Source: Bilabrum cf. latius
Lineage: Eukaryota
Assembly: GCA_965178125.1 (NCBI GenBank)
Contig: OZ237759.1
Span: forward strand, 248,001 to 312,000
DNA length: 64,000 nt
Reading direction: 5' to 3'
Under the pieces are notes generated by a model that was given only the letters and a program-made list of their open reading frames with translations, was not told the DNA's origin and did no database searches. Positions 22,329 to 60,371 of the stretch are shown piece by piece (the first letter of the stretch is position 1; each line of letters starts with the position of its first letter). Position numbers and translations under genes: made by a program.

Positions 22329-24683
22329 TCACGTGTCAGGCAGCTAGTGCAGCTTGCCCCGAGAGGCAGCATCGCCGAAGACTAGCTTGTAGAACGGCAG
22401 CCAGAGCTTCTAACCAGTCGACACTGATAGACCGGGCTATCGAAACCGGATCCTGACCTTGCCGCTCTTCCCGAATCCCCCCTCGATGGCCCCAGTGGCC
22501 ACAACGCCAGCCCCTTCACCGCGTGTCACCATGCTCGAGGCACCCCCCTCACTTGCGCCCCCAGCAGCAGCCACATCCCTGCTGCCCTCCTCCACAGCAC
22601 CTGCACCCTACTCGCCCTCGCCCCCCAGCAGCTGCACCTTGAGCCCGACAAACGGTGCCAGCTCCGTCCCTTTGCCGAAGAGCCCTCTCGCGATCACCAC
22701 GGTCGCACCCGACCGGCCGTCTCCGCCCTCTGCCACTCGATCCACTGCCCCATCCTTACCCTTCTTCCTGTAGAGGCGGACAGCTCCCAGGCTGCTCTTG
22801 CGATCCCCGGGGCCGGCAGCAGATCCACCACCGGTTGCAACCACTCCTCCCACGCCCCCCCCGCTCCATCCACCCGCCGCAGGTAACTCAGCCCTCACCG
22901 CCCCGTGGAAGGCCAGCCGGCACCCCGGAGCATGCGTGTCTCCATCCAGTCGACTTCCGATCACCGTGCTGCCCTCGGGGCACACAACGGGCGAGTCAAG
23001 CTCGAGGAGCGCCCACTGCCAGCGAGGGCTGTGCATGTGCATGGGAGCCTGAGAGGAGGGTCTTGAGGAGGGGGCTGTAGAGGGCGTTGCAGATGCAGCC
23101 GAGCCCTTGCCCTTGTCCTTGCCCTTGTCCTTGCCCTTGTCCTTGGGTCCAGTTTTTCCTCTGGATGCGCTTTTTCCCGTCTGTTTCCCTTCCTTCTGTT
23201 TGCCCCCCTGCTTCTTCTTCGTCCTCCCCCCGCTTAATGGCCCCATCAACTCGTCCTGCCACTCGAACAAGGCGCCCCAGTCATACACTAGCTCGGGCAC
23301 CTGCAGCCCATGCGATAGATCTGATGAACCCATAGCGCTGCCACCGACCCCATCCATGGAGCTGGCGGCGCCCTCGCCGAGATCCCTACCAGCACCACTT
23401 GAAGCAACATCCTCTGCCCCTTCACCCGCACCGGCCCCTTCGCCGTCTTCTAGAGCCACCGCGCTCGCCCTCTCTGCCGCAGCCAGCTCCCTGCTGCTTT
23501 CGTCCTGCCCCACCCCAGCCGCAGCCAGCTCCCCGGCACCGAAGAAAGTGGCCGTGCCCATCACCGTGGCATGCCCCACCGTCAGGTGAAACCGAGCCCC
23601 GCTCGAGCAGCTACCCTTGAAAAAGCGCACCCGCTGCACTAACGCCAGCAGCCGATCCGCCTGTCGCACCGAGCCTGGCGTTGCAACCACGGCCCGCTCC
23701 AGACCGGCGGGGTCCAGCCCGGCCACGCAGAGGCCCAGCCGATCCCCTGCCGCGGCGCCGCGCACGGGCTTGCGGAACATCTGCATGGACTTGACTTTTT
23801 TGGTTTGTTTCAGGTGCACCAACTCCACCTCATCTCCCACTGTGACCCTGCCCCTGAGCGCGGTGCCGGTCAGCACAGTCCCGTGCCCCTTGACGGCGAA
23901 GCAGTGGTCTGCTGCCATCAAAAAGGGGCCCGTGCGAGCACGGCGGGGTACTCGTATGCTAGACAAGAGAAGGGAAGACAGGGAAGATACATCTGCTAGG
24001 GGCGTTGGAGCTCCCATGTCGCCTGGGGAAGCAGCCTTGGCGGAGGCTGCTGCGGCATCAGCAGCAGCACCTGCCCCGCCTTTGCCAGCCCCGCCTGGTG
24101 CCGCAGACAGCGCGACGATCGGAGCTTCGGAAAATCGCGTGGACGACAGTATTTTCCGCACCTTTGCGCTCATCTTGGCTGTCTTCTCTTCCCGTTTGTC
24201 TTCCGGAAGAAGGTCCGTCTTGTTGAGGACGACTACCAGCTGCTCTGCTGTGATTTCGCCAATCACCAAGCACTCGGCGGTCTGCGTCTAGAATCCCTTG
24301 GTGACATCGACGACAAGAACAATCATATCGATGATCTAAGCGCCCCCTATGATTGTTCGAATCAAGCTTGCGTGCCCAGGACAGTCAACAAGGGTGAACT
24401 GCAACCGCGACGGAGGCCTCGACAGGCCCTCTGATGCTGCATACTCCACGGCCCCTGGCTTCAGACGCTCAGGAAGTTCTGTCAAGTATGATGAAAACCC
24501 CAAGTCAAGCGTGATTCCCCTTCGCTTGCTTTCAGGGTGCTTGTCTAGAGCTGCTGTTGAGAGGTGAGTGCTCAGAGCAGCAACTAGGCTTGTTTTGCCA
24601 GAATCGACGTGCCCCATCACACCGACATTCACATTAATTACATCACTTGCCTTCAATTCCTTCGCCTTGGCCGGATCGCCCAT
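22329..24683 (-). CDS. EEFSEC: Selenocysteine-specific translation elongation factor, about 784 aa with low-complexity insertions
   Basis: NVNVGVMGHVDSGKTSL, RGITLDLGFS, DCPGHASLIRTIIGGA(Q)IIDM, KGF(Q)TQTAECLVIGE, NKTD, DHCFAVKGHGTVLTGT, CRLAFHG and GGFGKSGK. TAGs at 24336 and 24288 occupy conserved Gln. TGA stop. Confidence 0.93.
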
Positions 24684-24853
24684 GGTGCTGACGGAACGAC
24701 CGAAGTGTGCAGACACGTCGCCCGGTGCCACCACACAGTGCAATGCCGCTCAGCTCTGCAGTGCCAATTGCTCCGAGTCTCGAGGTGTGGCACAAACCTG
24801 ACCGATCAGGCTTCAACCCGTCGCCATTTCTGCCCCGCCTGCCCGCCCATAAT

Positions 24854-26943
24854 TCAAACCGACTTGGTTGCAAGCTCCTTCCGCAGTGCCTCGGCCAGGT
24901 ACCACCCCTGCTGCTGATCGCGTTCGCTGCTAGCCGCCGAGGACCCCTCCAGTTCGACCTGGATCGACCCCCGGGGAACTAGGCGCGTCTCCGCAAGCAC
25001 CAGGCCGTCCTAGCCCACACCGAGCTCCCCCATGCCTCCCCCCCTCAGCCCTTTCAGCCGCGCCCCGGTCCCCGCATCCAGCGCGCCGTGCACCAGCTCC
25101 AGCACCGCACCCACGCGCTCGTACGGACTCACCCTCGCACGCAGCGCCACCCCGTCGGGGAACACAACTCGAAGAGGGCACCCGCCTGCGCCCACCTCCT
25201 CGCCCCGGCCCACGGCAGCCGATGCCCGGGGCCCCTCCCCTGCCTCCCGACCGACCCCCGCACTGCCGGTCCCGAACCTCTCCAGCGCCCGCAGCCGGTT
25301 TGCCTCCCTCTCCTCCTCACTGATGGGCCGGCCCCCGCGCGCCTTTCCGTGCTACAGGGCGCGCATCAGCGCGGAGACATCCTCCTGCGGGTCTGCATTA
25401 GTCGATAAGGCCGTGGAGGACCCGGCGGCTGCTGCTGCACCGCCAGTTGCCGGCACTTCCAATTCCTGCGTCTACTGCTCGCCGGCACCTGCGCTAGCCG
25501 GCTGCACGTCCTCGTCCTCGTCTTTGCAGCCGCCCTGCTTTGACTCGGACGCCCCAGCCCCCTAGCTCTCTTCCGCAACGCTGCCGTCACGGCCTTTCAA
25601 TGCCTCTCTCGCTGCCCTCGCCGCCGCCTCCTCCTCCTCGCGCGCCAGACGCAGCTCCCGCAGCTCTGCAGACTGACCCGCCGATCGAGCGCGCAGCTCC
25701 GCACTCGTCACACACTACCGATTGGGCCACACCTCCAGCATCCTCGGAGGCGGCCGGGCGGCAGGACTGCCTGCCAGCTCCCGCATCCTGGCCTGTGCTG
25801 CTGCCAGCTTGGTCCGCGCGTTCGACACGGGCAGCGCTGAAGCTGACGGCGCGCTGCTACTCCTCCTCCCTGACCCGCTGGCCGCACCGCTTCCAGAGTC
25901 TTGTACAGCCTGCGCGCCTGAAGGTGCCTCGGCTGACGCTGCGGATGCGGCCCCACGACCCGACACCCCGGTGGCAGCAGCGGTGGTTGCCCTCGCCGTC
26001 CTCCTTGGCAGGTGGGATCTCACCGAGGGAACAGAGGCCGCCACGCGGAGCTCCAGTGCCCTAAGGGCCGCAAATACCTCCTAGGTTATGTGCTTGCCCT
26101 CTGGCAGGACTAGAGCAGAGGGCACGGGCCTGGGGCCGCCGGGTGGGGACATCGCTCCTGGGACGGCGGCTTCCTCCTCCAGAGTGCGGAGGGTGCCGGC
26201 GGCGGCGGCTGCGTGCTCCCCTTCTGCGGGGCGTTCAAACCCGGCTGCCTCTAGCAGTGCCGGCCCGAGGCCGTCTTGCAAATTGCCGAGTTTGCTTCGC
26301 ACTTTCTCGTTCGTGAAAGGGATCCGTCGAAACTTGGGCTCTGGCTTGGCCGTGTTCTCGAGGATGCGGCGGAGCATCTTTAGCGAGCCAGATATCGTCG
26401 TGGCGCGCTCCCGTGCTTCCAATCGCCGCGCAATACCGGAAAATAGGGGGTCAGGCTGAGATTCGCGAGTGTTCTTGGCTGCAATTGCGGCGGTTGCACT
26501 TGCGAAGTCTGGTCCTGCGGCAGCCACGCCCGATTCTGCTTCTGATACCGCAGCAATCAGCACGTCTCCGGGCTCAATTTCATCTAGATCTTCAATTATT
26601 GTTCCTGTGCAATCGTGAACAGTGGCTAAATCGCAACACATTGCATGTCAAGCCACAAAAGACCGACAAGACCAAGGTAGAGGCACTCACCGTCTTCCAG
26701 TTGCACCACAGGCTCAGTTCTAAGCCCAAATTTAGCTTGTAACTTAGACTTTAGATCGCAGAAACTCCTGCGGATGGGATGTGTGAGCGTATGATTACTA
26801 TACTTGCGCGTTCTTGCAAGAATCTTGCGCTTCCATCGCTGCTGAGAACTATCTCACTCCCCAGGCTTGACCACAACACGCTTTGAAATAGAGGGGTTGT
26901 TGCTGGCATGCGCGGTAAATATCATTTTTTGTGTTGCCGCCAT
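24854..26943 (-). CDS. PUB- and UBX-domain protein (p97/Cdc48 cofactor) with an N-terminal ubiquitin-like domain; predicted introns 26768-26857 and 26605-26690
   Basis: PUB motif LRRILENTAKPEPKFRRIPFTN...LLEAAGF and UBX-like LRVVFPDGVALRA. The GT-AG introns give a continuous frame. TAG-linked fragments end at TGA 24854. Confidence 0.7.
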
Positions 26944-27423
26944 GGCACCAAAAAGTTTGCTGCGAAGCGGCGGAGATCCAATCATTGCACTGTCGTGCAG
27001 TGAAACAGTGGCACTCGTCATCACATAACTCCAAGATCGACTCGCGCAACCGTCTACCACAACAGATCAACGAAGAATGTGAGTCAATCGTTGAAGCTAG
27101 CTTCATGTGATTCTGCTGCTCATCCTATTGATGTGGTCATCGTTCTGTAAGTTGCACCAGATGAGTATACACCTCGTGTTGGACTGAGAAGCGCGTGCCA
27201 ACAATGCACGTCATTGTAGGTTGGCCTGTGTGCAAACGTATATAACACGCGCATAATTATGTTTATTTAAAATCCGCACCTGGCCCTGCGTTCTGCGTAT
27301 GGGCTGTACGATGCTCGCTGTGATTGATTTCATACACAACTGACGAATTCGCGTGTAATTCATCGCAGGCTGGGCACATACAGTGTTCTCTTCGGCGCGG
27401 TCTCTGCAGGGTTACTTCATGGC

Positions 27424-29700
27424 ATGACTAGCGCAGCTACGTGCGATATGGCCGGTGACTGGCTCATGTTTCCAGGGAGTGGGGTGGTCAGCAACAAGTA
27501 CTATCCAGCCGTGGACATTCCCGGTCACCCGGGCGACTTCAACATCAGCATCGATCTGCGACATGGTCCACAGACAGTGCCCGGTCATGTTGATTCAAGT
27601 AATGCCGTCACGGTGCAGATGTCGGACACGGTCGTGCTGCATGGCCAGTTTACGTCCAATTGTTCCTAGATCAGCTGGAACAGCAGCGGCACAGCCCAGT
27701 ACAACTACGGCACGGCCTGGTGCAGGGCGTGGGCCCCCGGCTGCAACTTTTTCCCTCCTCCGTACATGAAAGGGTTCGCGTTCTGGGACAACTTCCACGA
27801 CTACATGGTGCTGCAGCAGGCCCCCCAGAAGTCGGCCGTGTACGGCATGGTCTTCGGTTCGGACAAGCCTCAGGTGCAGGTCGAGGTGCAGGGGGACGAT
27901 GGCACCAACTACATGGTAGACGCGGAGATCAACACCGTGAACCAGCCGTTCGGGCCTGGATTCGAGTACCCGTGGCCCTACCCTGGCCCTTTCACCACGT
28001 GGAAGGCCCTGCTGAAGCCGCACGCGGCCGGTGGCAACTTCCGGATCACCTCCCGCTGCCTCAACTGCGTGGACAGAGACCCCATGTTCAACGTGGCCAA
28101 CATCTCCAACGTGACCTTCGGCGACGTGTGGTACTGCAGCGGGCAGTCCAACATGTGGCTCCCTGTGGGCCACAGCTTCGAGCGCAACAACACGGTGGAT
28201 GCCATCCGCAAGGGGCAGTACAACAACGTCCGGATCATGGCGGGCAACTCCGGATACCAGTCCAAAGGCATCTTTAACCCCTGGATGACCGCTGCGCAGT
28301 CTGTCGTGGATCCCAAGGGCGGCGTGGACTACCCTCTCTTCCAATTCGGGGCAGCGTGCTGGTACTTTGCGCAGAAACTCGCCGACGAGCTGCAGAAGGC
28401 GGGCAAGTCCGTCCCCATCGGCCTGGCCGACACGGCTGTTGGCGGGCAGAGGATCGAGGAGTACATGGACAACACCACCATAAGCAGGTGCACGGACCGC
28501 TCGGGAGAAAACATCCCCCAGTGGGACGGGCCTCTGTACGGCAAGCTGGTGGTGCCCTTTTTGGACATGACCGTCAAGGGGTTCCTCTGGTACCAGGGAG
28601 AGAACAACATGGGAGCCACCAAGGGCAACTCCATTGCCAACGTGGGGTACGGCTGCGAGATGGTGGACCTGGTGCAGTCCTGGCGCAGGAACTGGAGCAA
28701 GGTGCCGGGCACCACGGACCCGGACGCGCCCTTTGGCATCGTCACCCTGGCATCGAGCGGCTCTGAGGGCGGGCCCAACATGGGTGCCATGCGCTGGGCG
28801 CAGACGGGGAACTACGGGGTCCTGCCCAACCCGCTCATCCCCAACAGCTTCGTGGCGCAGGCCTACGACCTGGACGATCCCTGGGGCCCTAACGCCGGAC
28901 CGTGCTTCGAGTGGCAGTGCTGCGAGGCCTGGCACGCCAAGCAGAACATGACTGCGTGCAACATCGGCACCAACAACAACCCCAAGATGTGCGATCTCGC
29001 GTGCGCCGCCGCAGCTGACACCACCCCCGTGATGGGTGGCATCCACCCAAGGGACAAGAAGCCCGTGGGCGACCGCCTCGGGCTCGCGGCCTTCAACACC
29101 GTGTACGGCGGCGACGGCCCCGTCACCGGACCTACACTCTCTGGATGCGCGGTGCAGGACGGCTCCCTGGTGGTGCAGTTCAACCAGACGATGCTAAAGG
29201 GAGACACCGTGATCATCCAGCCGTACAGCCAGACCCTCAACATGTCCTACCTCGAGGTCATGACGGACCCCACCATCTTCTGCGTGGAGGTGCGCAAGAG
29301 AAACGAGTCATGCCGCTCCCACTGCGAGCTGTACTGTCCCACCTGGGCGGGCGGGTCCTCCATCACCAACAACTCCGCGCTCAACGGACACGACTCCCAG
29401 GGCTGGCAGCCCCTCAACATCTCCATGGCCGGAAGTTCGGCCATCAAGGCAGACCTGTCGCCTCTGGGAGAGCAGCCACCTGTCGCCGTGAGGTACGCGT
29501 GGGGCCTGTCCGAGTGCTGCGACAAGACTGACCCCGATCTCTACGTCAAGTACCCCTGCGGACCCGCCCCCTGCCCGCTCATGCTCGGCTCCAAGTCCTT
29601 CCCGGCCAACCCCTTCATCGCCAAGATCAAGGACGGGAAGTGCGAGTGCATCGCGCCCCAGACGTGCGACGGGCCCGTGGGAGAGAGCGTGCTGGCGTGA
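27424..29700 (+). CDS. Secreted sialate O-acetylesterase (SASA)-family protein; the 5' end probably extends upstream through an intron
   Basis: FGDVWYCSGQSNM, PIGLADTAVGG, KGFLWYQGENN, IHPRDKKPVGDRL and PVAVRYAW. One TAG (27667) joins the N-terminal part. Confidence 0.85.
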
Positions 29701-30142
29701 GCCCCGGGGAGAGCTGCCAGTGGTCGAGACTTGTGCCAGTTTCACGTCGCCTCACGAATGCAGCGGATTGGTAGGCAGCGGTGACGCCGTTCCATCCCAG
29801 CTTTGTTGGCGTGTAGTCGATGTTTTGCTTTGTTTTTGCTTGCTACGTATGCCTTTGCTTGATTCAAAATGGAAACGTTCTGGTATCCGCAGGGCTCGCG
29901 CCAGCACGACGCTCTCTCCCACGGGCCCGTGGCACGTCCACTGCCACTGCCAGTGGCAGTGTGGGGCCGGGCGGCAAGTGCCACTTGCCGCCAGCATGGT
30001 GGTGGCAAGCACTCGCCCCACTGATTAAACTTGCTTCACATTTCAAAGTCTCTCAGCAAGTAGCGAGTCCAATAAATAATCAATATTGTTTGGGTGAAGG
30101 TCCGTTCCAAACAGTGACAGCTGGGAGGAGCACCTTGGCGGC

Positions 30143-31919
30143 ATGTGGCGAACGAGCCTGCGTCTGTCTCAAGTCCTGGCTGTGACAGCATGCGCGATGC
30201 AGGTATCATCAGCACTCCACCAAAATGTGCTTCTTCTTGTAATCGACGATCTGCGCCCCCAGATCAAGTCATTCGGCGTGCCAACAATGGTAACCCCAAA
30301 CATAGACGGTCTCGCGTCGTCAGGCGTGCTCTTTGAGCGAGCCTACGCGTAGCAAGCCATATGCAGCCCCACTAGAAACAGTTTTCTTAGCGGTCGGCGT
30401 CCAGACAAAACCAGAACGTGGAATTTCTTCGACCATTTCAGGAACGGGTCTGCTGAGGGTGAGACTTGGATTGCCTTGCCCGAGTTCTTTAAGGATCAGG
30501 GATATTTCTCGGGCGGGGTAGGCAAAGTGTACCACCCAAACCACGTGAGTCATTCCAATGCGCTGCAGAAGGGGGATGCATGCCGCTGTCAGGCAGCAAC
30601 GGCCAACTTCAGCGCAATCACATTCGTTTCGCCGGCGGTACTAGACTCTACTCACCCCGCAGCCACCACACTTTGACGAGCCGAGATCCTGGAGCTAGCC
30701 GTGGCCGGGCGAATACGGCAACTGCTCGTGCCTGAACGTGGACCAGCCCGGCCCGGACGGGGCTGCCTCCCCCCAGGCCTCCTGCGAGGGCCTCCGCCCC
30801 GACACGCTCGACTGCCAGGACGAACAGATCGTTGCTACCGCAGTGCAGCAGCTCCATGGGCTGGCAGAGGCATACACTGCCTCCTCTCAGCCGTTCTTCT
30901 ATGCCGCGGGCTTGCACAAGCCACACCTGCCGTTCTTCGCGGACCCCTCCGACTTTGCCATGTACCGCGGCGTGGACGAGCGGCCCCCGAACCCCGACGT
31001 GCCTGAGGGCATGCCATACGTCGCTTGGCACTCGTGCCTGTCCAACGCACCAGGCGGGAACGGATCAAACTGGGGCAACTTCACGGACATCCCTAACCGC
31101 ATGACATTCGAGACGCCCATGGGCAGCGAGACGGCAGCCCGCCTGAGGAGGGGGTACATGGCCAGCGTGACGTACACGGACAGGAGCGTGGGCCGCATCC
31201 TGGATGCCATAGAGGCGGTGCGGAACGACACGGTGGTGGTGTTGCTAGGGGATCACGGCTGGTCCCTGCTTGAGCAGAACATCGCGTGCAAGATGACCAA
31301 CACGGAGAACGGGGTCCGCGTCCCGCTCGTCATCCGCGCCCCGGGCGTGCAGGCGGGCGAGGGTCTGCGGGTGCGGGAGCTGGCAGAGGCGGTGGACCTG
31401 TACCGCACCCTGGCAGACCTCACGGGTGTAGGCGCGGAGAAGGTGCAGCCGAGCGTGGATGGGGTGTCCCTTGGGCCCATGGTGAGGCAGGCCACTGCGC
31501 CTGCACTGCACGATGCTGCCATGTCCCAGTTCCCGAGGTGCTACAGCCACGTGCCTGGCCTGCCCAACACCACCCGAGCTGATGATGGCGAAGAGGCTGC
31601 CTCCCGTCCCCTGGGGTTCCCATTGCCCGCCCTCGACCGCACGGACTGTCAGGACATTGACCGGACTATGTTCGACTACATGGGGTATTCCATCCGCACG
31701 AAGGAATGGAGGTACACGGAGTGGAGGAGGTGGAAGGGGCAGGAGCTGGTGGCTGACTGGGAGGCCGAGCCATACGCCGTGGAGCTGTACGACCACAGGC
31801 AGGACGACCAAGCAGAGCCGTTCGGGACGGAGACCCGCAACGAGGCGGGAAGCAAGGCCGTCGCAATGGAGCAGGCGCAGCTCGCTGCGATTCTGAGGGG
31901 TAAGTTTTGCCCCCGATGA
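30143..31919 (+). CDS. Sulfatase, iduronate-2-sulfatase-like; intron 30545-30662
   Basis: NVLLLVIDDLRP, AYA(Q)QAICSPTRNSFLSG (formylglycine CxPxR motif), GKVYH, HKPHLPF, GDHGW, GYSIRT and ELYDH. The GTGAGT...CAG intron restores the frame. Confidence 0.9.
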
Positions 31920-32114
31920 CGGTTTTTGGCAGCCGCCGGGGCTTTCGATGCATACAAGCAAACCTCTATTAGTAAGTATTGGATCTGTCTACGAGCAAAA
32001 CAAGCAAGGGCAAGTCACACCCTAAAATGTACTGCACCACAGCGCCGAAGCGGGCCTCGCACCGCCGCGGGCAGGCTGTCTCCCGCAAAGGCACTAGCCA
32101 GGGTGCTGCCCCTC

Positions 32115-34082: not shown

Positions 34083-34262
34083 GTTCTGTTCTGAGCACAA
34101 CTTGCTGCTACGTAATGCGAATTTGAGCATTTGCTATTTTTTTGTTGCGGAACCATGAGCAAACCAAACCGGCGGAACGCGCGGCGCCGGTGCAGGCACG
34201 CTCTGCTGCGTTGTGTAGCCCATTCCATCCATTGTTTATGCATCGCGCTGTTGTTTCAAGAA

Positions 34263-37670: not shown

Positions 37671-37957
37671 TGGAGGTCGCTAGACAACTGAACTGAGGGA
37701 GATAAGAGCTAGATTTCCCGCAGAATAGGATGGAAAGCACAAGTCGGCTACGGTGGTTGCAACCATCATCGAAGAAGAAGATAAAAACAACCGATGGCCT
37801 GCCTCGCAAACCTTCAGATCGCACGGAGAACCAGCTTTTCTTAGAAACCAAAATAGGTTTATTATGCAATACATCAGACCTATAAAACCAACGCCTGCTA
37901 GAGACATCAAGACAGCCCCAGTCCAACAGCACCACCATCCCAGGCGATGAGACCCAT

Positions 37958-38915
37958 TCACTTGCCACCCATGGTCCCCCGAAGCACCCCGGTCGAATCG
38001 GACGAGGGGAAGAAAGCACCGTCCTTCATCTCCGAGTCCAGGTGGTACAGAAGCCCGGGCATGCGTGCATAGGCAAGGGCCTGTTTCCTCACAGAGTCCT
38101 TCTCCTCTGTTTCCATCACCTGGTGCCGCAGGAACGGCTGCAGGAAAGCCGCCGTCTGCTCGTCACCTTCCTCCCGCGAGAGTGATGCAAGCTTCTCGAT
38201 GTTCTTGGTTGTGTCTAGCTCGGCCTGCGCGGCGCTGTTGAACACGTCGATCGGTTTCTTCCAGCCCTCGATGAGTCCCTCGACCCTCTCCGCCGTGGTG
38301 CTCGGCAGCAAGAGGGCGGCGTCATCCACCCCGCGGTCGATCAAATAGTCCATGAATAGGAGCGCGTGCTTGTGCTCATCGGCGGCCTCGGCCCTGCGGT
38401 CATCAGGAGGCTTGCAGTGTGGTGCTCTCGCGTGACGTGACGACTGGGAAAGTGCGTAGGATCGACACCTACCCTCGTAAATTGTGCTCTCACCTGGCCC
38501 AAGAAGCTAGTCCGTCGAAATTGGCCCGCCGGAAGAAAATTGAAGCTTGTAAGTATGCCTGCGAGTGAGTTTACTTGCACAAGAACGACTTGAGGGCCAG
38601 TAAATACGGGACGTCGAGCCGGAACCGTTCCAACTGCAACTACACAACTGTTCTCACCTGCTCGTTAAACAACTCCGTATTCATCTACTCAATCAAGCCT
38701 TTCGCCACAGATTCTGGCGGAGTGTTGTCTACTTTGAACGCACTCCTTCCTTTGCCAACAGCTGCTTCTGGAACCACTACGGCAGCCATTTCGTCTTCTA
38801 CAAGCACTTCTGATGTGCGGGCACTCCCGGCAATCCGACGCATACGCGTAAAAGTGCACGCCACAGACATTGGTCGAAATACCTGCTTGCATACTTGTTT
38901 CACAGTTGCTAGCAT
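37958..38915 (-). CDS. Ferritin with a probable organellar transit peptide; introns 38558-38657 and 38394-38493
   Basis: The spliced product reads LIE(Q)MNTELFNEQAYLQASIFF...GLASWARAEAADEHKHALLFMDYL...AELDTT...FLRHQVME...LYHLDSEM, the ferroxidase four-helix pattern. Confidence 0.82.
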
Positions 38916-39181
38916 AATATGAGGATTTGATCCAGGCAGCGTCCGTATCTCGGATAAGTGCGACGTCGTTGCGGGATCGGCAAACCAGACGCCGTTGTAC
39001 GAACGATTCGGAGTGCTAAGCTATTCACCACTGGTCTTTCGACTTGTGTTTGCAGGCTGTGCGAACAGTGTACGCGTACGAATTGAGGGCGCCCACCGAT
39101 CGCTGTCTGTTTCCCGATTCCAGCCACCGTGTCGCCGGCACCACCGCGAGCATCCAGCCTTAGCCTGAGGCAACTTGAAGC

Positions 39182-41446
39182 TCACTTGCGCACTGCCCCC
39201 AGCAATGCATCCATGTGGTCGTTCAAAAGCACCCCCTGCGGATCCCTCCGACCCCTCAGCTCCTCGAACCTGGCCAGTCGCTCGCCGAACCGGGCCCTCA
39301 CGACCGCAAGGGCCTCAGCCCGGTCCTGCGCACTCGTCACGCTTGATCGCGCCGCCAACGTCTCCCAATCGGCATCCATTGATGCATCCTTGGCGGCGCC
39401 CCCTTCGTCTCCTTCTTCTATGTGTCCTCTCCCATCCCCATCCTCATTCCCATGCCCATTCCCATCCCCAACCCCATTCTCATTCTCGTCCGGCACCAGC
39501 TCGATCTTGGCCCAATGCTGCGCCGCCTCGAAGGGCCCCCACAGCTCCCGCCTCCAGAGCCCCTCGTACGCCTTGAAGGCCGCCGTGATGCGCTCCCTCT
39601 GCGCCTCGTCCTGTGTGGGAAGGTACATGATGATGCCCACCCAGGAGAAGACCTACTCGGGGTCCTGGCTGTAGGCGGGTGACATGGGTGACCGGCTCCG
39701 GGCCGTCCACCTCTGTTCGATGGGACAGGCAGCAGGGGTGCCTATGCCCTCGATCATTGCGAGCAGCCGCAGCATAAAGGCCATGTCAGGTGCATCAGAC
39801 CCAGCAGGGGTAGAGCCATCAGAGGGCGAGGAGGATGAGGAGATCTTGTCGGCAGCTGGAGGTGTCGTTGTTGTTGTTGGTGGCGGTCCATTGGCCAGCT
39901 CCCGGAGGTCTTTCAGGCTCCGAGTCCCGAGCCTGCCGGCGGGGAAGCACACCTCACTGACCCACTGTTGCCCCCCGCAGTCAAAGCCCAGCAGCTCGTC
40001 GCTCCATCCCTCCCTCGTGCTGCCGCTGATGCCCCGCCAGTACTCCGCCTCCGCTGCGTTCACGCGCTGCACCCATCCTGAGCTGAGTGGATCCCGGGCC
40101 AGGAGGAGATCCCTCAGGCCGGTGAAGCCCATCTCCAGCAGCCCCTCCTCGGACACTTGGCCCTCCCCAGCCTGCTCCTCCCGATCCACCACCAGTCCGA
40201 CAGCCCTTGCCAGCTCGCGCATGGCCGACTCAGGGGCGGCACCCATCGAGCTGTCGTGCAGTGCACCCGCTTCCACCGCGCGTCTGCATTCCTCCGTCAG
40301 CCCGAGATTACTGCCGCGGTTTCCCGCGGAACTGTTTCCGCGCGTATCACCAGGGAACAACTCCTGGCCATGGTCCATGTCCGTCGCCCGCACGGCCTCC
40401 CCCGCCGCTCTGAGCCTGGCCTCGTCCTCGTGGGTGGAGGGGTCGCAGGCCACCACCACCACGGCGTCTGTGTACGGCAGCCACATGTAGCGCACGTGAC
40501 GATGGCTGCGCAATCGCTCCGCGTGGCCCTTGACCGCCTGTTCCCTGGATATGACGAACGTTCGCTCGGTGAGGCGGTGCCTGGGCACGGCCCTGACAGT
40601 GAGCGAGGTCACCACACCCAGGGTGCCCAGGCCCACCCGGGTCATCAGAAAGTCGTCTGTCGGATTTGAGGCTGCATTCCTTAGAGGGTTTACTTGAGGC
40701 GGCTGCGTCGACTGTGTGGGTATGCTATCGCAGCCCGAGTGGCAGCCGAGCTGCACTATCCCGGTTGGGTGCTCGGTCGAGGGTGGCACCACCACAGTCA
40801 TCCCAAGCACCGTCTCATCGACCGGAGGGATCGTCACACCGGTCCCATGCGCCGATACTTGCGTGAACCCGGCCATCTGCTGGTCGTCGATCGAGGCGTA
40901 ATTCTGCAGCACGAGGCCGTGACGTCGCAATGCCGCAGTTACTTGCTTCACCCTTACACCGGCCTGCACCCGCACAGTTCCAGTATGCGTATCAATGGAT
41001 TGTATGCTGTCTTGTAGTGCGACAGAAATCATTCCATCCCTTGACAACCCGCATCCATTTGGCGAAATCTGTGAGCCAACTGCTCGGATTCTGCTGCTTA
41101 GCGCAGCGCGTGATCCGAGGGACTTTGCTACGGCGGCCTCGCTCTCAGGTGTTTCAAAATATGGTGCGTGGACCGCGTGGGTGCCGGACCAATTCTGATA
41201 TTCTGCCGACTCTATAACCGGCCTCGCCGTGCTGGACACGTCACTGGTAACAACAGGTGCTGTGCCAGCCAACTCTGGACCGACATCGCCTGCGTGCACT
41301 GCAACATGGGGATCTTCCAACTCATGCACTAAATTCCTCTCGGCCTCGCAATCTCCAAGCTATTTGTAAGCAATTGCAACAGCTGCTACAAGCCCTGAAC
41401 CGATCGCTCCTGCTGGTTTGTTGTAGCGGCGGCACAACGATACCAT
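39182..41446 (-). CDS. GLDH: L-galactono-1,4-lactone dehydrogenase (FAD-linked, ascorbate biosynthesis)
   Basis: NWSGTH, VGSQISPNG, LQNYASI, QVSAHGTG, FDCGGQQWVSEVCF, PIEQRWTARSRSPMSPA, FSWVGIIMYLP and HWAKIE. TAG at 39653 joins the two halves. Confidence 0.9.
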
Positions 41447-41653
41447 CTACCGGAGTCGTGATGTCAACGTTAGTGTGCGACTCATGGATGATTTGAACAT
41501 CTAAACGACAAGAGATGTATAGTGTTCATGTATGGGTTTGGCTGCTGGTGTAAGCATAGTATTGCGACCAAAAAGGTTGTGCACTGCACGGTCCCGGAAA
41601 TTGCGACGTCAGGAACTATACCAACAGTTCAAGCAATCGGCCGTTTACGCAAC

Positions 41654-44600: not shown

Positions 44601-46710
44601 GCGCCTGGCCGCCACTCTCCGGGGCCAGCGACCGGGCAGCGAGGGCGGCACCTGGCTGCTGGCGGTGGATCCCGAGTCCGTGTCGTACAGCGTGCAGCTG
44701 CCATGCCTGAAGGCGATGGACAAGGTAAGAGCAGAGCACTGCGAGCAGGAGTGGGGCGTGCTACTTGGGCAGTCGACGATGTGGCCGCAGCTGGTGCTTG
44801 CTGGTGTCAGCGTGCTTGTCTTTATCTCCTCTCTCTGTGGGGCTATCGACGTGAGGGCCATGAGAGACACACTGTATTCCTATGGTCACGGACACAACGG
44901 AACCGGTCATGATTCTGCTGATGCTAGTGAAGTACATGATGGACTGCATGATACGCATCCAGCGTGGGAAGACGGCGTCCGAAGGGCTCGAACGGAGCCA
45001 AGTCGCGGTGATGACACCACTGCCCCCGCTTGGCACGACTTGTCAGGTGGAAGTGCTGCTGCTGTCAGGGTTGCTTGGCTTTGGACGCTGGTGGTGACCC
45101 TCGTGTATGCCGAGTGCTCGCTGCCTGCACTGGTGCTGGGACTGGGGCTGGTGATCATGTGCGTGGTTCGACTCGGAATGGTGCTCGGGTGTGGGCTAGA
45201 TCTGCTTGGGTCTGCTGCTGAGGCGGGGCGAGCTGCGAGGACTAGCGGCGGCGCCAGTGGCCTGGGCTTAGGACAAGCACAGGTCACGGACGCGACGTAC
45301 GCTGACCACAGTCCCGGTATGGCTGGTGAACACGAGGCTCGGGATGCTTCCACCCTGCAATGTCTGTGTGGTGATCGGTGCAAACCGGGTGGCTCTTTTA
45401 TGCACTGCTGCGACGGATGCAACGCCATGTGTGCCAGAATAACGGCCGCACTCGTTGGTGCTGGTGGGTGGGGAGATTCATCCGAGAACCAAACATCCGG
45501 AGAGTCTGACCCTGCCGCGCTGTGGACAAGTGTGGGGGCTCCCCTTCAGGGCCGACAGCTGAGGAGGGCGGGGCGCAAGACGGATGGGACCGAGCAGGCA
45601 TGGGCTCCTCCTGAGATTGACAGGGGTCGGGGAAAGCCGGTTCCTTCTGCCGGTGGGTCTGCCAATTCGCCTAAGGCAGCAGCAAACTGGAACAATGCAT
45701 CGCATCAAGATCCTAGCAGCCGCCCACAAGGCTCTGCGTCGAGGCTGGCCAGGACCAGACTGGCGCTGAGACAAGCGGCGGTGCAGAGCAAGCACGTCGT
45801 CTAGGCCGGGACCACTAGGGCGCGTGCGAGGCAGTGGTCAGACTCGAACTCCATTTCGGACTCGGAAGATTTCCCGTACGACCCACGGAGCTCTCTGCAT
45901 GACCTGGCAGGTTCCATGGACTTCTTGGACACCGAGGATGGGTAGATGGGTCACAAGTATGGAGGGGCGCTGGAGCATGGTCAACCCAACCATGAGCAGA
46001 GGGGGGATGCAAGTAAAACCGACGATGACCATCGAGCCACCCCAACCGCTGTCCAACGACGCCATGCACCGCCTAGATCAAAAGATCAGGATCCTGCGGT
46101 ATTGACAGACAGGCTACAGAGCTATGCCTCCAGCGAGGACCGAGCCATCGCTGGACTGGCCCGCATGCAGGCCCTGCAGCCCGCCCTCTTCTCGGCCATC
46201 AGGGGCCTGTCCGTGCTGGCATGGGAGGCTCAGGCAGCCGCGGCATGGATGGCATACAGGGACGATGTGCAGGCAGCCAGGCATGTCAACAAGCGGCCGT
46301 TGCTGCAGGGCCATGCAGACAATAATGGTGTTGGGCAAAAGGAAGGGCCCCGCAAGTCTCCGCAAGAGCTGGCTTGGCGGGCACTGCAGCTGCGCCTTGG
46401 CGTTGTGCACAGGTACGGATGGTGGCTTCGCCTGGCGGAGGACGTGCTGGTGGCGGGCGTGCTGGTGTGGGTGGTGCTGTGCGTGCTCGGGGTGTGTGGC
46501 TGGCAGGAGTGCTCGCTGGCAGCGGCTCAGCTGGCAGCGGGCGGGGATGATGCCGAGCTACTTCGGTCAGTGCTCCAGGAGTCGGAGGATCGCGCTGTGT
46601 ATGGGCTGGAGCCCGTACTGGTGGGTCTGCAGCGGCTGCAGCTGCTGAGCGTGTCGGTGCCGATGGTGATGCTTACTCGAGTGCTCGGAGTGGTAGGTCG
46701 CTTTGCATGA
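41654..46710 (+). CDS. Large hypothetical membrane protein (about 1500+ aa); 5' exons and start uncertain
   Basis: Seven ORF-track pieces from 42121 to 46710 share one frame and are separated only by TAG. Likely introns near 41900-41967 and 42214-42301. Signal-like and transmembrane segments. Confidence 0.6.
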
Positions 46711-47029
46711 CCCCTCGTAGTAAAGCGCATCCGATGGATGGATTATGTAAGCATTGGATACAGATTATGTAGCAATATGACACAGTCCACCTCCTCCTTA
46801 TAACCTTATCGGCACCGCGATCGCTTTTGGCCCTTTGTTGACATCCAAGATCCCGATTTGCCGTAGCAGTTCTCTGAACTTGAGAGTCTGAAGCCATAGT
46901 ATACCATAATATGGTAACCAAATCCTCCTACCCTCCATACGCTGCAAGTTCAAGAGTCGAGTTGAGACGCGGATGAGCAGCTCCCATTGAACAATGCAAG
47001 TCTTATTAATAACTCAAGAAACCAAAAAT

Positions 47030-50000
47030 TCATGACACTGAGCAAATCGACGAGCCCTTCGCCGCCAAGTCGTCCTGCGCTTTCTTCGCGTCCGCCTCGG
47101 CCTTCTCACGGGCCGTCTTCTCCTCTGCCAACTGCTTCTTGAGCGCCTCTAGCTCGCTCAGAGCGCCCTTGCCCGCGTCACCGGAGGCTTGCCGCAGCAC
47201 GTCTGCCTCCTGCTTGGCCCTGCTCGCCTCGTCCCTGAGCCGGTCCATCTCCTCCTTCTGCGCCGCCTCTATCTTGGCCTTCTCCGCCGCAATGGCAGTG
47301 CGCACCTGTTCGTCGCTGCCACCCGCGGCAGCACCCCCGGCAGCAGCGGCGCCTGCCCCTGCCCCGCTCCCCCCGGCTGCTCTCGCCTCCGCCAGCTCCC
47401 TCTCCAGCTCTTGCCTCCTCTGCGCCTCCCTCTGCAGCGCCTCATCCTTCTCCTGGATCTGCTTCTCCCTGGCCTCGATCTCCTGGGCGGCCGCCTGCTT
47501 CGCCTTGAGCTCGGCATCGATCGCCACCTGCGAGATGATAGACTGCCGGGCGGACTTGCCCGCCTTGGCCGTGCCGTCATCAGGGGTGCCCCACACCTGC
47601 AGCACCATGCTCTGAGTGCCCACGTACTCCAGGAACTCCTTGGTCACAACCACCGAGAAGGTCTTCCGGTGGTTGAAGTTAGGGTTCATGGCCTTGCCCT
47701 TGACCGGCACCGTCTGGTGCCACCTGTCGTCCAAGAAGAACTTGTACTTTACGTGCACGTCCACGCTTTGGTCCTTGGGCAGCGATCGGGCGCCCTCGAT
47801 GATGAGGGTGAAGTTCACCTTGCGGCCCTCCAGCTGCTCGAGCTGGTCCACGAACGTGGGCTCCCCGTCGTCCCCCTCAATCTCGATCCCGTCGTCCTCG
47901 TCCTCCCCCTCCGGGGGTTCTGGAGTCAGGTGCGGGATCAGCTTGAGCAGCAGCTTGCCCACCTCCTTGCCCTGATGGTTCAAGATGGCCACACTCTCCT
48001 GGATGGGCAGCGCGTGGACCAGCGAGTCCAGCAGCAGCCTCACCTTGCCCAGCTCCAGCGGGACCGCAACGATGTGGAACGGGTCCTCCTCGGGGTCGAT
48101 GAAACCGGTGCGACCCACGTCCCGGTCGGCCTCCAAGAACTCCTGGTAGAACTCCCGCATGATGTACAGCCGCTCCATGAACTCTTCGTGAGCCCACAGC
48201 GCGCGCAGAGGACCCTTCTTCTTGGGCTGCGCCAGCACGTACACCTCAGTGTCGAGCTCGGCGTCCTCCTGCTCCTTGCTCTCCTCGTCTTCATCTTCCT
48301 CGTCCTCATCCTCCTCATCGTCCTCCTCGCCGTCCTTGGACTCGTCAGCCCCAGCCCCGCTGGCCGGCCCCTGCTGCAGTCTCTTCCTGCCGCCTCTGTA
48401 GGTCGACTCGCCCCTCTGGTTCGCCATGAGCGTCACCTCAAGGGTGACTTCCTTGCCCACCTCCTCGGCGATGGCGTTGGCCTCGTTCACCAGGGGGATG
48501 GTGCGCAGCAGCTTCTCGTCCAGCAGTGTCCTCTCCCGCATCTCCTTCTGCTTCTTGGCGTGTAGCCTCTCCGTCTCCTGGATCTGCTCCTCGAGCTTCT
48601 TCTGCAGTTCCTCCTGCTGCTTCCTGGCCCTCGCCATGAGCTTCTCCTGCTCCTTCTGCATCTCCTGCATGGCCTTCTATTCGCCCGCCTCCTACATCTT
48701 CTTCATCTTCTCCTCGAGAGCAGCCGCGCGCTGCCTCTCCTCCTCCTCTGCCTTCGCCCTCTCCGCCTGCATCTTCTGCTCCAGCGCCTGCACCTTCTCC
48801 TCCGCCTCTTTGCGCATCCGCTCTGCCTCCGCGCGGCGTTCGGCCTCCTGCCTCTGCACGGCCTCCACCTGCGCCTTGTTGACCTCGTTGATCGCGAACT
48901 CGAACGTGATGTCAGTAGGCACGTCGTCCTCCACGGGGGCCGTACCGGCCGCGACCTCGGCGGGGATCTGCACGAGGAACACGTGGTTGTTGCCGAAGAT
49001 GACGCGGTTGCGGTGGTGCAGCTCCACGCCATCCATGCTGTCGATCTCCTTGCCGTTGACGAGGATCTTGGCGCCTTCCTCGCCCGGCTTGAGCGCGATG
49101 CGGCCCCCGGAGTTGATGACCACGGCATGCTTGGTCTTGATCGACAGACCGCCCAGCGTCACATCCATGGCCTCGTCGGCGTCGTCCCTCCCCACCCTCA
49201 GCTGCTTGCCCTCGTCGAAGAAGTGGAAGATCTACCGGTCCATCAGCTGGTCCTCATGCAGGTTGACGATGTTGGGCTCCACCTCCGCGCGCTTGCGGGC
49301 CGCCTCCAGGTCAGCCCCGGTGAGCACACCCAGCGACTTGAGCCGGTCGGTGGCCATCCTAGCGCGCGCGTCCGTGGCCAGCGCGTCCTGCTCCATCTCG
49401 GCCTTCATCTTGGCCTCCATCTCTTCCCTGAGCTTGCGCTCCATCTCCTCCCTGATCTTGGCCTCATCCACGCCGCCGCCGGCGGCCCCGGGCACCATCC
49501 CCGCGCCGCCTCCCCCAAGCTGTGCCTTGAGGGCCATGATCTGCTCCTTGAGCTCACGGATCATCCGCTCGTTCGGGTCCTCGTTCACAACGGCCTTGTT
49601 CTTGATCTTCTTGGCGCGATCAGCGTACCGCAGCGTGGACAGCGTCTCGTCGTAGTTGACGTCTGCTGGGCTCACGGCCGCGATCATGATGGTCTTGGAG
49701 TTGCCTCCCAGCGCGTTTTTGAGCAGCTGCGTGAGCACAGAGTCCCTGAAAGGCACCTTTTTCTTCTTTTTGTGGGCGGGGTCGCTGTTAAAAGCCAGCG
49801 TCTCGATGACCCGACCGAGCGAGGACAGCGACATGTTGATGGCGGAGCCCTCCTTGAGCCGGGCGCCAGAGGCCCCCGTGCCCTTCTGCCTCTCGCTCCC
49901 CGCGAGATCCACCAGGTTGATGACGCTCGTCTTGTCCGTGGCCTTACCCGCGGCTGCGTCTAGCTTGGTCTGCGTGAAGGTGATCTGGAATATAGTGTGG

Positions 50001-51047
50001 GCCCTGGAGGAGGTCTTGTTCATGTTGGTGGATGCCACCGTCCTGGCCTTGCTGCCCGCCTCCATGAGCCTCTCGATGGTCTCGAAGTCCCTGACGGCGT
50101 TCTTGGTCAGGTCCTTGACGAAGAAGCCGATCTTGGGGTCCAGGCGCACCTTGAGCTCCCCCGCGCCAGGGTTGAAGAGGTCCCTGATCTTCTCCATGTA
50201 GATCTCCAGCATGGCCGTCTCCACCTTGAAGGACATGCCCTCCTCGGTGTTGGCGGTGATGCGATCGAAGATCCTGGAGCATGCGATCGGGATGATGCCC
50301 TTGTCCGGCCCGTACCCCATCATCGAGTAGCTCTTCCCCGCGCCGGTCTACCCGTAGGCGAACAGAGAGCAATTGTAGCCGTCGAACGCGTTATTCAGCA
50401 CCCCCACGCCAATGTCTTTCCAAACCGTGTCTTGCGAGGCGTACTTCGGGTCGTCTCGCGGCACGAAGCTGTCGTAACTATAATCGAAGGTAAACTTCTT
50501 CTCCTTCCCTGCGATGATAACTTGCACAAGAAATAGTTAGCCACGGTGAACACTTTAACATAGCCTGGCGCCAACTACTAGACGAATCAAGACGCGCACT
50601 TCGTCTTTTCCGCTGCTGTGTAATGGCCTCAAGACAAACTGGAACTGACGACCGACTAGCCTGCACTTATTGAGCTAGTATAGCTAATATGCACCGGAAA
50701 GCACCACTCGACCCCCGCGATACCACCTTCGCCTCTGCCGAGGGCCGCAGTTGAATCGACATATCGGTTTCTTCTTGGAGCAGCGAATCCTGGTTACGGT
50801 ACCGCATGCACAAACAAACATAGCATACACATAGATTGTTTCACACAATAAGAACCTAAACGTAAGGAAATCAGCGAGATAGCAAGGTCAAAATGGGGTA
50901 CACGTGCTAAAGCCTGCCCTCACCATCGGCTGGGTTGGTGATAATGGTGTCCTTGCCAGACATTGTAATACAGTTCTTCGCGCCCATGTCCTTTTCACGA
51001 CCATTGTAGGGTCGCACTCGCACTGCGACCTTGACGGCTTCCGCCAT
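47030..51047 (-). CDS. Kinesin-3 family motor (motor, FHA, C2-like and coiled-coil regions, C-terminal CaaX-like CSVS); intron 50509-50923
   Basis: [13 protein letters not shown](Q)[52 protein letters not shown] and FHA-like [10 protein letters not shown]. Confidence 0.93.
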
Positions 51048-51371
51048 GGTTTTCAGTCACAAAAGGACGAAGGAAATTTTGGTGCGAATCGAGAAGGCGC
51101 CGCGGTTGTAACCGGTATAACGCGATGGATTGAAGATGAAGATTTAAAACGAGAATTGACGGGAAGCAGAGCCACCACTTCTATTGAGCCCGACACGGCC
51201 CTCGAGGCAGTCGCGCTGCATGATGCAGCAGTAATCCACGCTGCCAGCGTGTGACTGCCAGCAGCAGGGGCGCCGCACCGTGGCCCGTGGCAACGTCCCG
51301 AGGACCACAACCAGCCAAGATAAGCACCTGCCACTTTACATGCAGATCCAACTCTTCTTTTTCTCATCCAT

Positions 51372-51968
51372 TCAGCCGCGCCCCGCCCCCGCGTACCCTC
51401 TGAGGGATACTGCCCTCCCGTCCGGGGCCGTGCCCTCGCCGAACAGAACGGGCACGGGGGCCTTGTCGCCTGCTGCAGCTCCGCCGAAACACGCGGTGTC
51501 ATTGAGGCGAGCCTTGCACGCCTGCTCCGTGTCCGACGACTGGTACCACGAGAAGATGCAGTTAGCGGGAACGAACGGGAATTGGACGATGTCCGTGTCC
51601 TCGTCCTCGTCGTACGTGCCTGCGTCCCAGGTGGTGTCGGGCCCGTCGCTCTGGATTGACACAAAGTACGTGTAGTTGCCCCTGTCCTTGGAATCGGTGA
51701 ACGTGTAGGTCGTGTTCACCTGCACGTCGCCTCCCGAGCCGGTGTTTACGATGTAGATGCCAGTCGTGTTGGACTCGACCGCCTTTGGCGGCTGCTTCTG
51801 GTATGTTGCGCCCCCTGTTGTGCCACTGTAGTACAACGTATCAATGCAGTTGTTGATGTGGACCTCCAGCGTTCTACGAACAAGCGAAAATACCAAAAAG
51901 GGTAGCGAAACATCGACAGCAACAAAGATCCACCGCACCACTGCTTTGCACGGCTTACTATGCCGCAT
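51372..51968 (-). CDS. Hypothetical protein (last exon well supported, 5' structure uncertain)
   Basis: 198-codon ORF with strong GC3 bias in its 3' two-thirds. Possible intron GTAAGC...TAG near 51874-51958. Confidence 0.45.
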   Translation of the reverse strand: MRHSKPCKAVVRWIFVAVDVSLPFLVFSLVRRTLEVHINNCIDTLYYSGTTGGATYQKQPPKAVESNTTGIYIVNTGSGGDVQVNTTYTFTDSKDRGNYTYFVSIQSDGPDTTWDAGTYDEDEDTDIVQFPFVPANCIFSWYQSSDTEQACKARLNDTACFGGAAAGDKAPVPVLFGEGTAPDGRAVSLRGYAGAGRG

Positions 51969-52529
51969 TGATCCAAAGCAGACTGATCTGTCTCAACCGC
52001 ACTATCATCATAACCCAAACCATGCCATGCACGCCTCCACAACCCGAAGTGATCTTGTTGGTTCTTGACCAACGCGATAGTTCTTGCGACTGCAGTCTTG
52101 CACTGAGGCGCAGCATCTAGTGGTAGCTCCTACTCACGCAACTGCAACACATGCCAAGCTAATGACTGCTGCAACGATTCGCATAGCGCTGCTGCTGACT
52201 TTGATACTTGTGAGATGCCCAACGAGACAATTCGACCCGTAACCTGCGACCACAGTGTGCCCGAGCTTTTATGAGCGGGAGCGGTGATGAAAAGTCCACA
52301 TACCACCCTCAAACAGGCGAGCTTGTTACAACATGGTAATACAACATTCGTCTCGCAGAGTCTTGACCATGAAGCGGCTCGGCATTGCGATATTTATGGC
52401 CGGCCGTCGCTGAAGAAGACCTGCTCCAAATATCCTATTGATGGATCCGCGATGTTTGTAAGAAACATCACAACTCCGATCCTCATATCTTACCCGACTG
52501 TACGCAGTCCATGCTCTTTGGCTGCCATT

Positions 52530-53145
52530 TTACGCGAACGCAATAATTTCCACCTCCATCATTAGCGCAGCTCTAGGGGGAATGATCGGCGGGTACCCCC
52601 TCTCTCCATAAGCTAGTGATGCAGGAATAGACACTTTTGCTCGCTGACCGCGGGACATTGACTTGATGGCGATATCGAGGCCGCGCACAACCTGACCGAC
52701 GCCGACCCTGAACTCGAATGGCATCTTCCTGTCTCTCGAGGAATCAAGCTTCGTGTTGTCAGCGGCAAGAAACGTTTCGTAGTGAATGCGGACAGTGTGA
52801 CCATCCTTTGGGAAATGTGTCGCGTCGCTACGAGTGAAAGCAGGTCGGTTGTGCGCCTCAAACAGTCTTTGAGTAAGGGCGTATCACAAAATCTTGAAAT
52901 CGAGCGCACAGAAGGTCTTACCCAGCGACAATGGTCTGAATCTTGAGACTGGAGCCCGAATCGGATCCCACGACTACCCCACGACTCTCCGAGTGTCCTT
53001 TGGCCGCAGCTAGGCCACTTCGATCAATTTTGTGCTCCTCGTGACCCTACTCTGCTGACCCCATGTCTTGCTCGCTTGCGCCAGCAGACGTCTGAAAGTC
53101 AGACACCGGCGCTGGTTCGTCTGAGCCGCCTGATTGCGCTGCCAT
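52530..53145 (-). CDS. FKBP-type peptidyl-prolyl isomerase with an N-terminal extension; intron 52828-52921; ends in TAA
   Basis: GDATHFPKDGHTVRIHY...DSSRDRKMPFEFRVGVGQVVRGLD...LAYGERGYPPIIPPRAALMMEVEII. Confidence 0.88.
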
Positions 53146-59670: not shown

Positions 59671-59811
59671 TTACTCCTTGTCTACTTTCCAAGAACTATT
59701 CTAATGAATAGTACCGTTCATTCTTACAGTTCTAAAAGTTGTCTGGTTCATCAATAGGATTTTCATATTGATATTCTAGTTCAATATAATTATCCTCAAT
59801 CCTTAATTTTC

Positions 59812-59815: not shown

Positions 59816-59826
59816 CCTAAGATTAT

Positions 59827-60348: not shown

Positions 60349-60371
60349 TTATTATCACTGGTAGTAATTAT

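Follow-up and report, generated by a model that had tools for sequence, protein, structure and literature searches.

How many stop codons does the organism behind a DNA segment retain when its apparent genes are interrupted throughout by TAG, and what does TAG then encode? This question is raised by a segment of 64,000 nucleotides from contig OZ237759.1 (assembly GCA_965178125.1, deposited as Bilabrum cf. latius; positions 248,001 to 312,000 of the forward strand). The whole segment is referred to here as the window, and all positions are counted from its first nucleotide. An earlier note on this DNA had proposed a nuclear genetic code in which TAG is reassigned to glutamine (Gln, Q) while TAA stays a stop. 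Our analyses lead to the same answer: the window is very probably nuclear DNA of a protist that reads UAG as Gln and in which translation still ends at UAA and at UGA, the latter being the usual stop. We take this to be the code type of NCBI translation table 15. As judged by Pfam and PDB matches, the gene set of the window is eukaryotic; it includes a selenocysteine elongation factor (eEFSec), a kinesin-3, a sulfatase, an L-galactono-1,4-lactone dehydrogenase (GLDH), a DBH-like copper monooxygenase, an FKBP, and a ferritin, together with a SASA esterase, a SUEL-lectin protein, and a PUB-domain protein. The base composition is 60% G+C (GC) over the first 59 kb and 41% over the last 4-5 kb, where a virophage-like element is found.

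In-frame TAG codons in long reading frames

Read with the standard code, the window has no stop-to-stop frame longer than 764 codons. Treating TAG as a sense codon yielded longest frames of 1979, 1531, 1299, and 1213 codons. When TAA was treated as sense instead, the longest frames were unaltered, and when TGA was treated as sense, the longest frame reached 818 codons. These values bear out the statement of the earlier note that open reading frame (ORF) fragments join only through TAG. Stop codons were then counted in 17 host frames (15,838 codons). TAG was found 95 times in frame, compared with 104 and 79 times in the +1 and +2 frames; the corresponding counts were 0, 52, and 59 for TAA, and 0, 282, and 332 for TGA. 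TAG was thus equally common in and out of frame, with TAA and TGA shut out of the host frames. In-frame TAA, which had been named as an observation that would speak for a different code, was absent from the host frames and from the virophage frames alike. Codon use per 1000 was 6.0 for TAG, 29.5 for CAG, and 8.6 for CAA, and TAG would make up 13.6% of all Gln codons if it encodes Gln.

TAG coincides with conserved glutamine positions

TAG codons were next compared with the residues found at the same columns in homologous proteins. The kinesin-3 gene (KIF1A/KIF28-like, minus strand) has a main exon at 47030..50507 with four in-frame TAG codons, a Pfam Kinesin match (E 1e-97), and a TGA stop at 47030-47032; its exon 1 (50923..51047, minus strand) is joined to the main exon via a 415-nucleotide GT..AG intron (50508-50922). 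One TAG (50348-50350) lies in the P-loop; KIF1A has Q in the corresponding column, as do 113 of 114 non-gap rows of an alignment of 120 homologues. The eEFSec gene (22329..24743, minus strand; Pfam euk_SelB_III, GTP_EFTU, and eEFSec_4th) contains six in-frame TAG codons and ends in TGA. Both TAG codons of its GTPase domain (24336-24338 and 24288-24290) pair with Q of human eEFSec (5izk), while the C-terminal TAG columns were unreadable, the alignment to 5izk being too weak there. In the first coding exon of the sulfatase (30143..30555, plus strand; Pfam Sulfatase), a TAG at 30350-30352 stands immediately 5' of the CxPxR active-site motif, and Q occupies this position, directly before the catalytic Cys, in human iduronate-2-sulfatase 5fql and 6ioz. 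The sulfatase appears to continue in another frame at about 30800-31919, where Pfam Sulfatase is matched too, presumably across an intron.

The DBH-like copper monooxygenase (53543..55597, plus strand; DOMON and Cu2_monooxygen domains by Pfam) carries six in-frame TAG codons, and a further exon lies upstream of an intron at 53491-53592. In an alignment of 30 homologues, the column of residue 227 (TAG 54221-54223) was Q in 22 of 29 non-gap rows, and that of residue 448 (TAG 54884-54886) was Q in 26 of 28 as well as in human DBH (4zel). At residue 198, Q was found in the five closest homologues. All six conserved host TAG columns were therefore Q, and none of 14 scored host columns had a residue other than Q at a frequency of at least 60%. 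With a Codetta-like script, the log-odds over these 14 columns were +4.7 for Q and -6.9 for S, the next residue; as a control, the same script returned the correct residue for nine of nine codons (CAG, CAA, GAG, AAG, TAC, TGG, CTG, TCG, and GAC).

All the TAG sites that the earlier note had named were re-located at their given coordinates, and those of kinesin, eEFSec (both sites), sulfatase, and the DBH-like gene, five of the six, align to Gln in homologues. The sixth, in ferritin (gene at 37958..38744, minus strand), fared differently. The exon encoding the Ferritin domain was recognized (Pfam E 2.5e-12), and the TAG at 38685-38687 was present in a putative upstream exon; that it marks a Gln site was left unconfirmed, as a 30-residue piece of this exon had no PDB match at E up to 10 and a 48-residue piece had no Pfam match at E up to 1.

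TAG, CAG, and CAA are interchanged between paralogues and between relatives

Two tandem paralogues without a Pfam family (9832-13242 and 14676-18143, plus strand; 1136 and 1155 amino acids) were compared by codon alignment. They have nine TAG codons in common, and at two further sites CAG in one copy is matched by TAG in the other. A metagenome scan with the kinesin revealed a close relative, represented by two loci (L001 and L005) of one metagenome with 57-58% GC. The DNA of these loci is 76-80% identical to the window, and the kinesin proteins are 80% and 92% identical. At the four TAG sites of the window kinesin, L001 and L005 have CAG, CAG, CAG, and CAA. Moreover, they carry seven in-frame TAG codons of their own, four of which correspond to CAG in the window and three of which fall in the variable tail, and the gene ends in TGA. 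TAG was thus shown to be interchangeable with CAG and CAA, both between paralogues and between the window organism and its close relative.

An upstream frame in L005 was considered as a gene and rejected; nothing in the window corresponds to it, and it does not have the look of a coding sequence. Among more distant kinesin loci (45-62% identity), L002-L004, L007, and L011 were without TAG in the aligned blocks. Two distant loci from other metagenomes behaved differently: L013 (33% GC, ciliate-like) has many in-frame TAA and TAG codons in the aligned blocks, and L006 has many in-frame stops, mostly TAG. Both may come from other recoded eukaryotes.

The TAG codons are retained in spliced transcripts

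In contigs from three runs (X5, X6, and X7), which belong to two studies and carry other organism labels, seven canonical GT..AG introns are spliced out that X1 contigs retain. Runs X8-X18, with small shares, did not enter this comparison. The seven introns were seen in 20 kb; the organism thus possesses spliceosomal introns, and the description of this DNA as intron-poor in the earlier note needs correcting. The joint between exon 1 and the main exon of the kinesin was present in contigs of X5, X6, and X7, and not in those of X1; exon 1 is also conserved in the relative (L005). The kinesin contigs of X5, X6, and X7 had no letter differing from the window, TAGs included, and an X5 contig was likewise identical over the DBH-like exon 53593-54358. 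Because the spliced contigs match the window letter for letter, RNA editing, removal by splicing, and assembly error are excluded for the TAG codons in these two genes, kinesin and DBH-like; removal of TAGs by editing or splicing, against which the earlier note had wished its proposal to be checked, did not occur in these two genes. In addition, the kinesin transcript contigs stop about 46 nucleotides 3' of the TGA, in keeping with termination there. Taken together, conserved columns, the close relative, the paralogue pair, and spliced transcripts are several independent lines that support TAG encoding Gln.

TAA and TGA end genes

Genes had been said to end in TGA or TAA, and the gene ends examined agree. 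TGA is the stop of all 17 large host frames, as well as of ferritin and of the ORF downstream of FKBP. TAA ends the FKBP12-like gene, whose last coding exon lies at 52530..52827 (minus strand); in the spliced translation, its TAA (52530-52532) is at most one or two residues from the end of the 107-residue FKBP12 chains. The three complete virophage genes described below end in TAA, TGA, and TAA, and the TAA stop of the major capsid protein (MCP) coincides with the C-terminal end of some twenty homologues. In the virophage frames, which are only 41% GC, TAA was found 0 times in frame and 27 and 33 times off frame, while TAG was found 12 times in frame. At none of about 20 gene ends inspected (the 17 large frames, FKBP, ferritin, and the three complete virophage genes) is a TAG stop required. 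TAA as a stop is thus supported, on fewer data than TAG as Gln.

How the code would work can be suggested by analogy with other UAG-only codes, as described in the cited portion of PMC5304391. A tRNA-Gln with anticodon CUA would pair with UAG but not with UAA, and eRF1 would be weakened in its recognition of UAG, with changes to be expected in its stop-recognition motifs (GTS, NIKS, and YxCxxxF). A tRNA scan of the window found no tRNA, an Rfam scan found no family and no rRNA, and there was no eRF1 gene in the window; no tRNA was found in L001 or L005 either.

A virophage element with in-frame TAG codons

The AT-rich end of the window holds a mavirus-like virophage element that is putatively integrated (59105..64000, plus strand); its left end is uncertain, and it extends past the end of the window. 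Four frames were recognized, all on the plus strand. Besides capsid genes, a cysteine protease, a packaging ATPase, an integrase, and terminal repeats would be expected of such an element. A small upstream frame (59827-60348) had no significant family in Pfam or PHROGs. It is followed by a penton gene (60372-61283), which matched the minor capsid protein 6g41 (E 1.8e-22), and by the MCP gene (61309-63030), which matched Pfam MCP_V20_C and the major capsid protein 6g45 (E 1.4e-10). We take both of these PDB entries to be mavirus capsid proteins. A virophage-type double jelly-roll MCP and a penton are thus encoded by adjacent genes. The last frame (63076-63999) is lipase-like, and this was the only match obtained when the virophage frames were searched against PHROGs. 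The MCP is about 25-28% identical to its database relatives, and a scan of IMG/VR with the MCP as the single query protein found no relative. One database fragment is 85% identical to MCP residues 127-288 and begins at an internal Met, as expected of a TAG-broken gene call in a sister element.

The four frames contain 12 TAG, 4 CAG, and 59 CAA codons, a shift that AT pressure would be expected to produce if TAG belongs to the Gln codons. Since 12 TAG codons lie in frame, the element would be expressible only under the altered code of the host, and judging from its codons it appears to be adapted to that code. Among the MCP TAG columns other than that of residue 404, which is taken up below, one has Q as its commonest residue (12 of 42 homologues) and four are variable.

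Two repeat features were seen around the left edge of the element. Two tandem copies of a 286-nucleotide unit (59105-59679; 93% alike), each with an internal 27-nucleotide imperfect palindrome, lie at this edge and could represent either terminal repeats or an array of promoters. A gene for a 936-residue protein is closely preceded by a perfect palindrome of 29+29 nucleotides without spacer (58762-58819), which falls on the host flank of the drop in GC.

Placement of the host

The best full-length matches of the kinesin were 48-50% identical, and the nearest named ones were from Cafeteria roenbergensis (cluster of P0049), Platysulcus tardus, Hondaea fermentalgiana, and oomycetes. A tree of 45 rows, built by maximum likelihood, placed the window kinesin as sister (SH-aLRT, the SH-like approximate likelihood-ratio test, 99) to a clade of Cafeteria roenbergensis and four further rows, and this group was nested in a clade with Platysulcus, Hondaea, and oomycetes. 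The sister sequences are full-length gene calls under the standard code. The GLDH gene (39182..41557, minus strand; four in-frame TAG codons, all in variable columns; TGA stop) matched PDB 8qmy with an E value of 4.5e-122, so that the organism does encode GLDH, as the earlier note had said. The nearest named GLDH matches, from green algae, plants, and Tribonema, had suggested a green alga as the host; this candidate was dropped, since the GLDH tree does not place the organism. The one-gene placement by kinesin makes a stramenopile close to the bicosoecids (Cafeteria group) the most likely host. A mavirus-like element would presumably fit a Cafeteria-like host.

If this placement holds, the host stands near Cafeteria, and the UAG change therefore arose separately from those of Iotanema and the ciliates. 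The earlier suggestion of an independent origin is thereby supported by one gene tree, in which kinesin falls beside Cafeteria and far from fornicates and ciliates.

Weighing the alternatives

Several observations weigh against the reading of TAG as Gln in a stramenopile that retains TAA and TGA as stops. The 17 host frames were delimited by TAA and TGA, and the zero counts of these codons are therefore partly built in; the existence of such long TAA-free frames is not built in by that definition. A symmetric test, which considered stops flanked on each side by an open stretch of 120 codons or more in the six frames of the host part, retained 22 of 797 TAG, 9 of 1610 TGA, and 3 of 388 TAA codons, a result that points in the right direction and is noisy in GC-rich DNA. 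FKBP is the only host gene seen to end in TAA. Ten of the 14 scored host TAG columns are variable and neutral as to the residue; at GLDH residue 635, for instance, homologues have S, E, and T, and at kinesin residue 432 they have V, M, K, and Q. The TAG columns of the virophage do not themselves point to Gln, and at that of MCP residue 404 (62518-62520), 37 of 42 homologues have Asp and 1 has Gln; Gln may be tolerated at this position, or this copy may be in decay. That X5, X6, and X7 derive from RNA is deduced from spliced joints and gene-wise depth, the kind of run not being given in the records. Finally, the window stood on a long branch in the GLDH tree and was not placed by it, which leaves the stramenopile position to one gene, kinesin.

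Given the GC richness of the window, TAA might be scarce for that reason alone, and UAA and UAG might both encode Gln, as in the code of the ciliate/Hexamita type (table 6). It would accord with this that TGA, and in no case TAA, is the stop of the 17 large host frames, and that TAA is rare overall (388 versus 797 TAG in the six frames of the host part). However, a Gln-encoding TAA that followed the ratio of CAA to CAG should occur in frame about 27 times (95 x 136/468), and it was observed 0 times there, against 52 and 59 times off frame. Also, FKBP and the virophage MCP end in TAA at the homologous C-terminus, and TAA should abound in the AT-rich virophage frames if it were a sense codon, where again it was confined to the other frames. 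We consider joint reassignment highly improbable. A different departure from the proposed code would be an ambiguous UAG, read as Gln inside genes and as a context-dependent stop for some of them (cf. Condylostoma and karyorelict ciliates). The eEFSec gene does have a TAG four codons 5' of its TGA, and only about 20 gene ends were inspected; but a TAG stop was unneeded in all of these, from the 17 large frames, FKBP, and ferritin to the three complete virophage genes, and the kinesin transcript contigs end about 46 nucleotides past the TGA. Such ambiguity is very unlikely.

To account for the TAG codons without any translation, one would have to invoke sequencing or assembly error, nonsense codons in decaying genes, RNA editing, or splicing. 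No observation in favor of this was made. The effect is limited to TAG, with 95 codons in frame as opposed to none of TAA or TGA, TAG is found within essential motifs such as the kinesin P-loop, and the relative has TAG codons at other Gln sites of its kinesin gene. For the kinesin and DBH-like genes, this explanation is refuted by independent runs from other studies, which have the same letters in spliced contigs, and its overall probability is negligible. TAG might also be a sense codon for some other residue, as UAG is known to encode Glu, Tyr, Leu, Ser, or Lys in other eukaryotes. The Asp column at MCP residue 404 and several host columns that weakly favor S, T, E, or V could be cited for this. 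Against it, each conserved host column is Q, and Q leads the next residue by 11.6 natural-log units. Moreover, the relative has CAG or CAA at four of four sites, and the CAA is two base changes away from TAG. We regard a residue other than Gln as extremely improbable, and we retain the reading of UAG as Gln with UGA and UAA as stops.

Relation to known codes

According to the cited portion of PMC11687900, UAG-only reassignment to Gln occurs in Iotanema spirale, Protocruzia tuzeti, and two phyllopharyngean ciliate lineages, and UAG-only reassignment to Leu or Ser in a rhizarian and in Scotinosphaera. The same portion names many ciliates, Hexamita, Streblomastix, ulvophytes, and Amoeboaphelidium as reading both UAA and UAG as Gln. 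Nuclear codes seldom change, and a decoupling of UAG from UAA is rarer yet, with only a handful of such lineages named there. For Iotanema, the cited portion of PMC5304391 describes the logic of a tRNA-Gln(CUA) and a modified eRF1, with a T32G change in eRF1. Iotanema spirale thus shares with the window organism UAG as Gln together with UAA (and UGA) as stops, and the same mechanism would be expected (PMC5304391, as far as cited). It differs in belonging to Metamonada, in contrast to an apparent stramenopile here, in which the DNA is 60% GC and TGA is the dominant stop. Protocruzia and the phyllopharyngean ciliates likewise have UAG as Gln and UAA as a stop (PMC11687900, same portion). Ciliates, however, show nuclear dimorphism and are mostly AT-rich, whereas the window is GC-rich, with ordinary GT..AG introns and apparently stramenopile-affine genes. 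The codes in which both UAA and UAG encode Gln also reassign a stop codon to Gln, but there the two change jointly, whereas here TAA ends genes.

Cafeteria is reported to harbor endogenous mavirus-like virophages. With these the present element has in common a low-GC sequence in a GC-rich host chromosome and the gene order, with a putative protease-like gene, penton, and MCP; it differs from them in its 12 in-frame TAG codons. Among viruses, some giant-virus metagenome-assembled genomes annotate better with single-stop reassignments (cited portion of PMC13524828), and a virophage survey mentions an ochre-suppressor tRNA that hints at hosts with altered codes (cited portion of PMC6905037). Searches of PMC (Creative Commons) and bioRxiv returned no nuclear UAG reassignment in stramenopiles or bicosoecids. 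The code type itself is known. Apparently new are the lineage, the recoded endogenous virophage, and a GC-rich setting in which nearly every stop is TGA.

More speculatively, a bicosoecid-related lineage with at least two sampled members may have evolved UAG as Gln independently, its endogenous virophage and, by implication, the giant virus of that virophage may be locked to the altered code, and the lineage would then be a candidate host of metagenomic giant viruses that read TAG as Gln. We offer this combined proposal tentatively and consider it more doubtful than not. If it is true, this would be the first known system in which host, giant virus, and virophage have an altered code in common. 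If a GC-rich stramenopile did acquire the code independently, this would be one more case from which to judge two open questions: why UAA and UAG are usually coupled, and whether UAG is captured more easily under GC pressure when TGA is the predominant stop. A recoded virophage would indicate that mobile elements follow the code of their host, and it would offer a handle for tying recoded giant viruses to hosts. On the practical side, standard gene callers fragment most genes here, and the proteins are consequently largely missing or broken in databases.

Other features of the window

The longest frame (121..6054, minus strand) encodes a low-complexity protein of 1977 amino acids, with 19 in-frame TAG codons and a TGA stop. 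Within this gene, long in-frame tandem repeats with units of 48 and 81 nucleotides were found at 1831-3432. The two paralogues of 1136 and 1155 amino acids belong to a tandem array (8195-19490) with a unit of 4.6-4.9 kb, comprising two full copies, which are 97.5% alike, and a third copy represented by its start; the encoded protein has a GxxGxGKS-like motif. The presence of eEFSec implies selenoprotein synthesis, and UGA, the main stop here, would then double as a selenocysteine codon in some genes. In the gene for the 936-residue protein, a 36-nucleotide unit, SPSTSPTPSVSS, is repeated in frame in about 20 tandem copies (57208-57881). Lastly, transcript contigs in the region 51137-53300 extend from FKBP beyond its TAA, over two more introns, into the ORF at 51137-51873. 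This ORF is signal-peptide-like, and its depth in X5 is very high; the arrangement may represent overlapping transcripts or a two-gene transcript.

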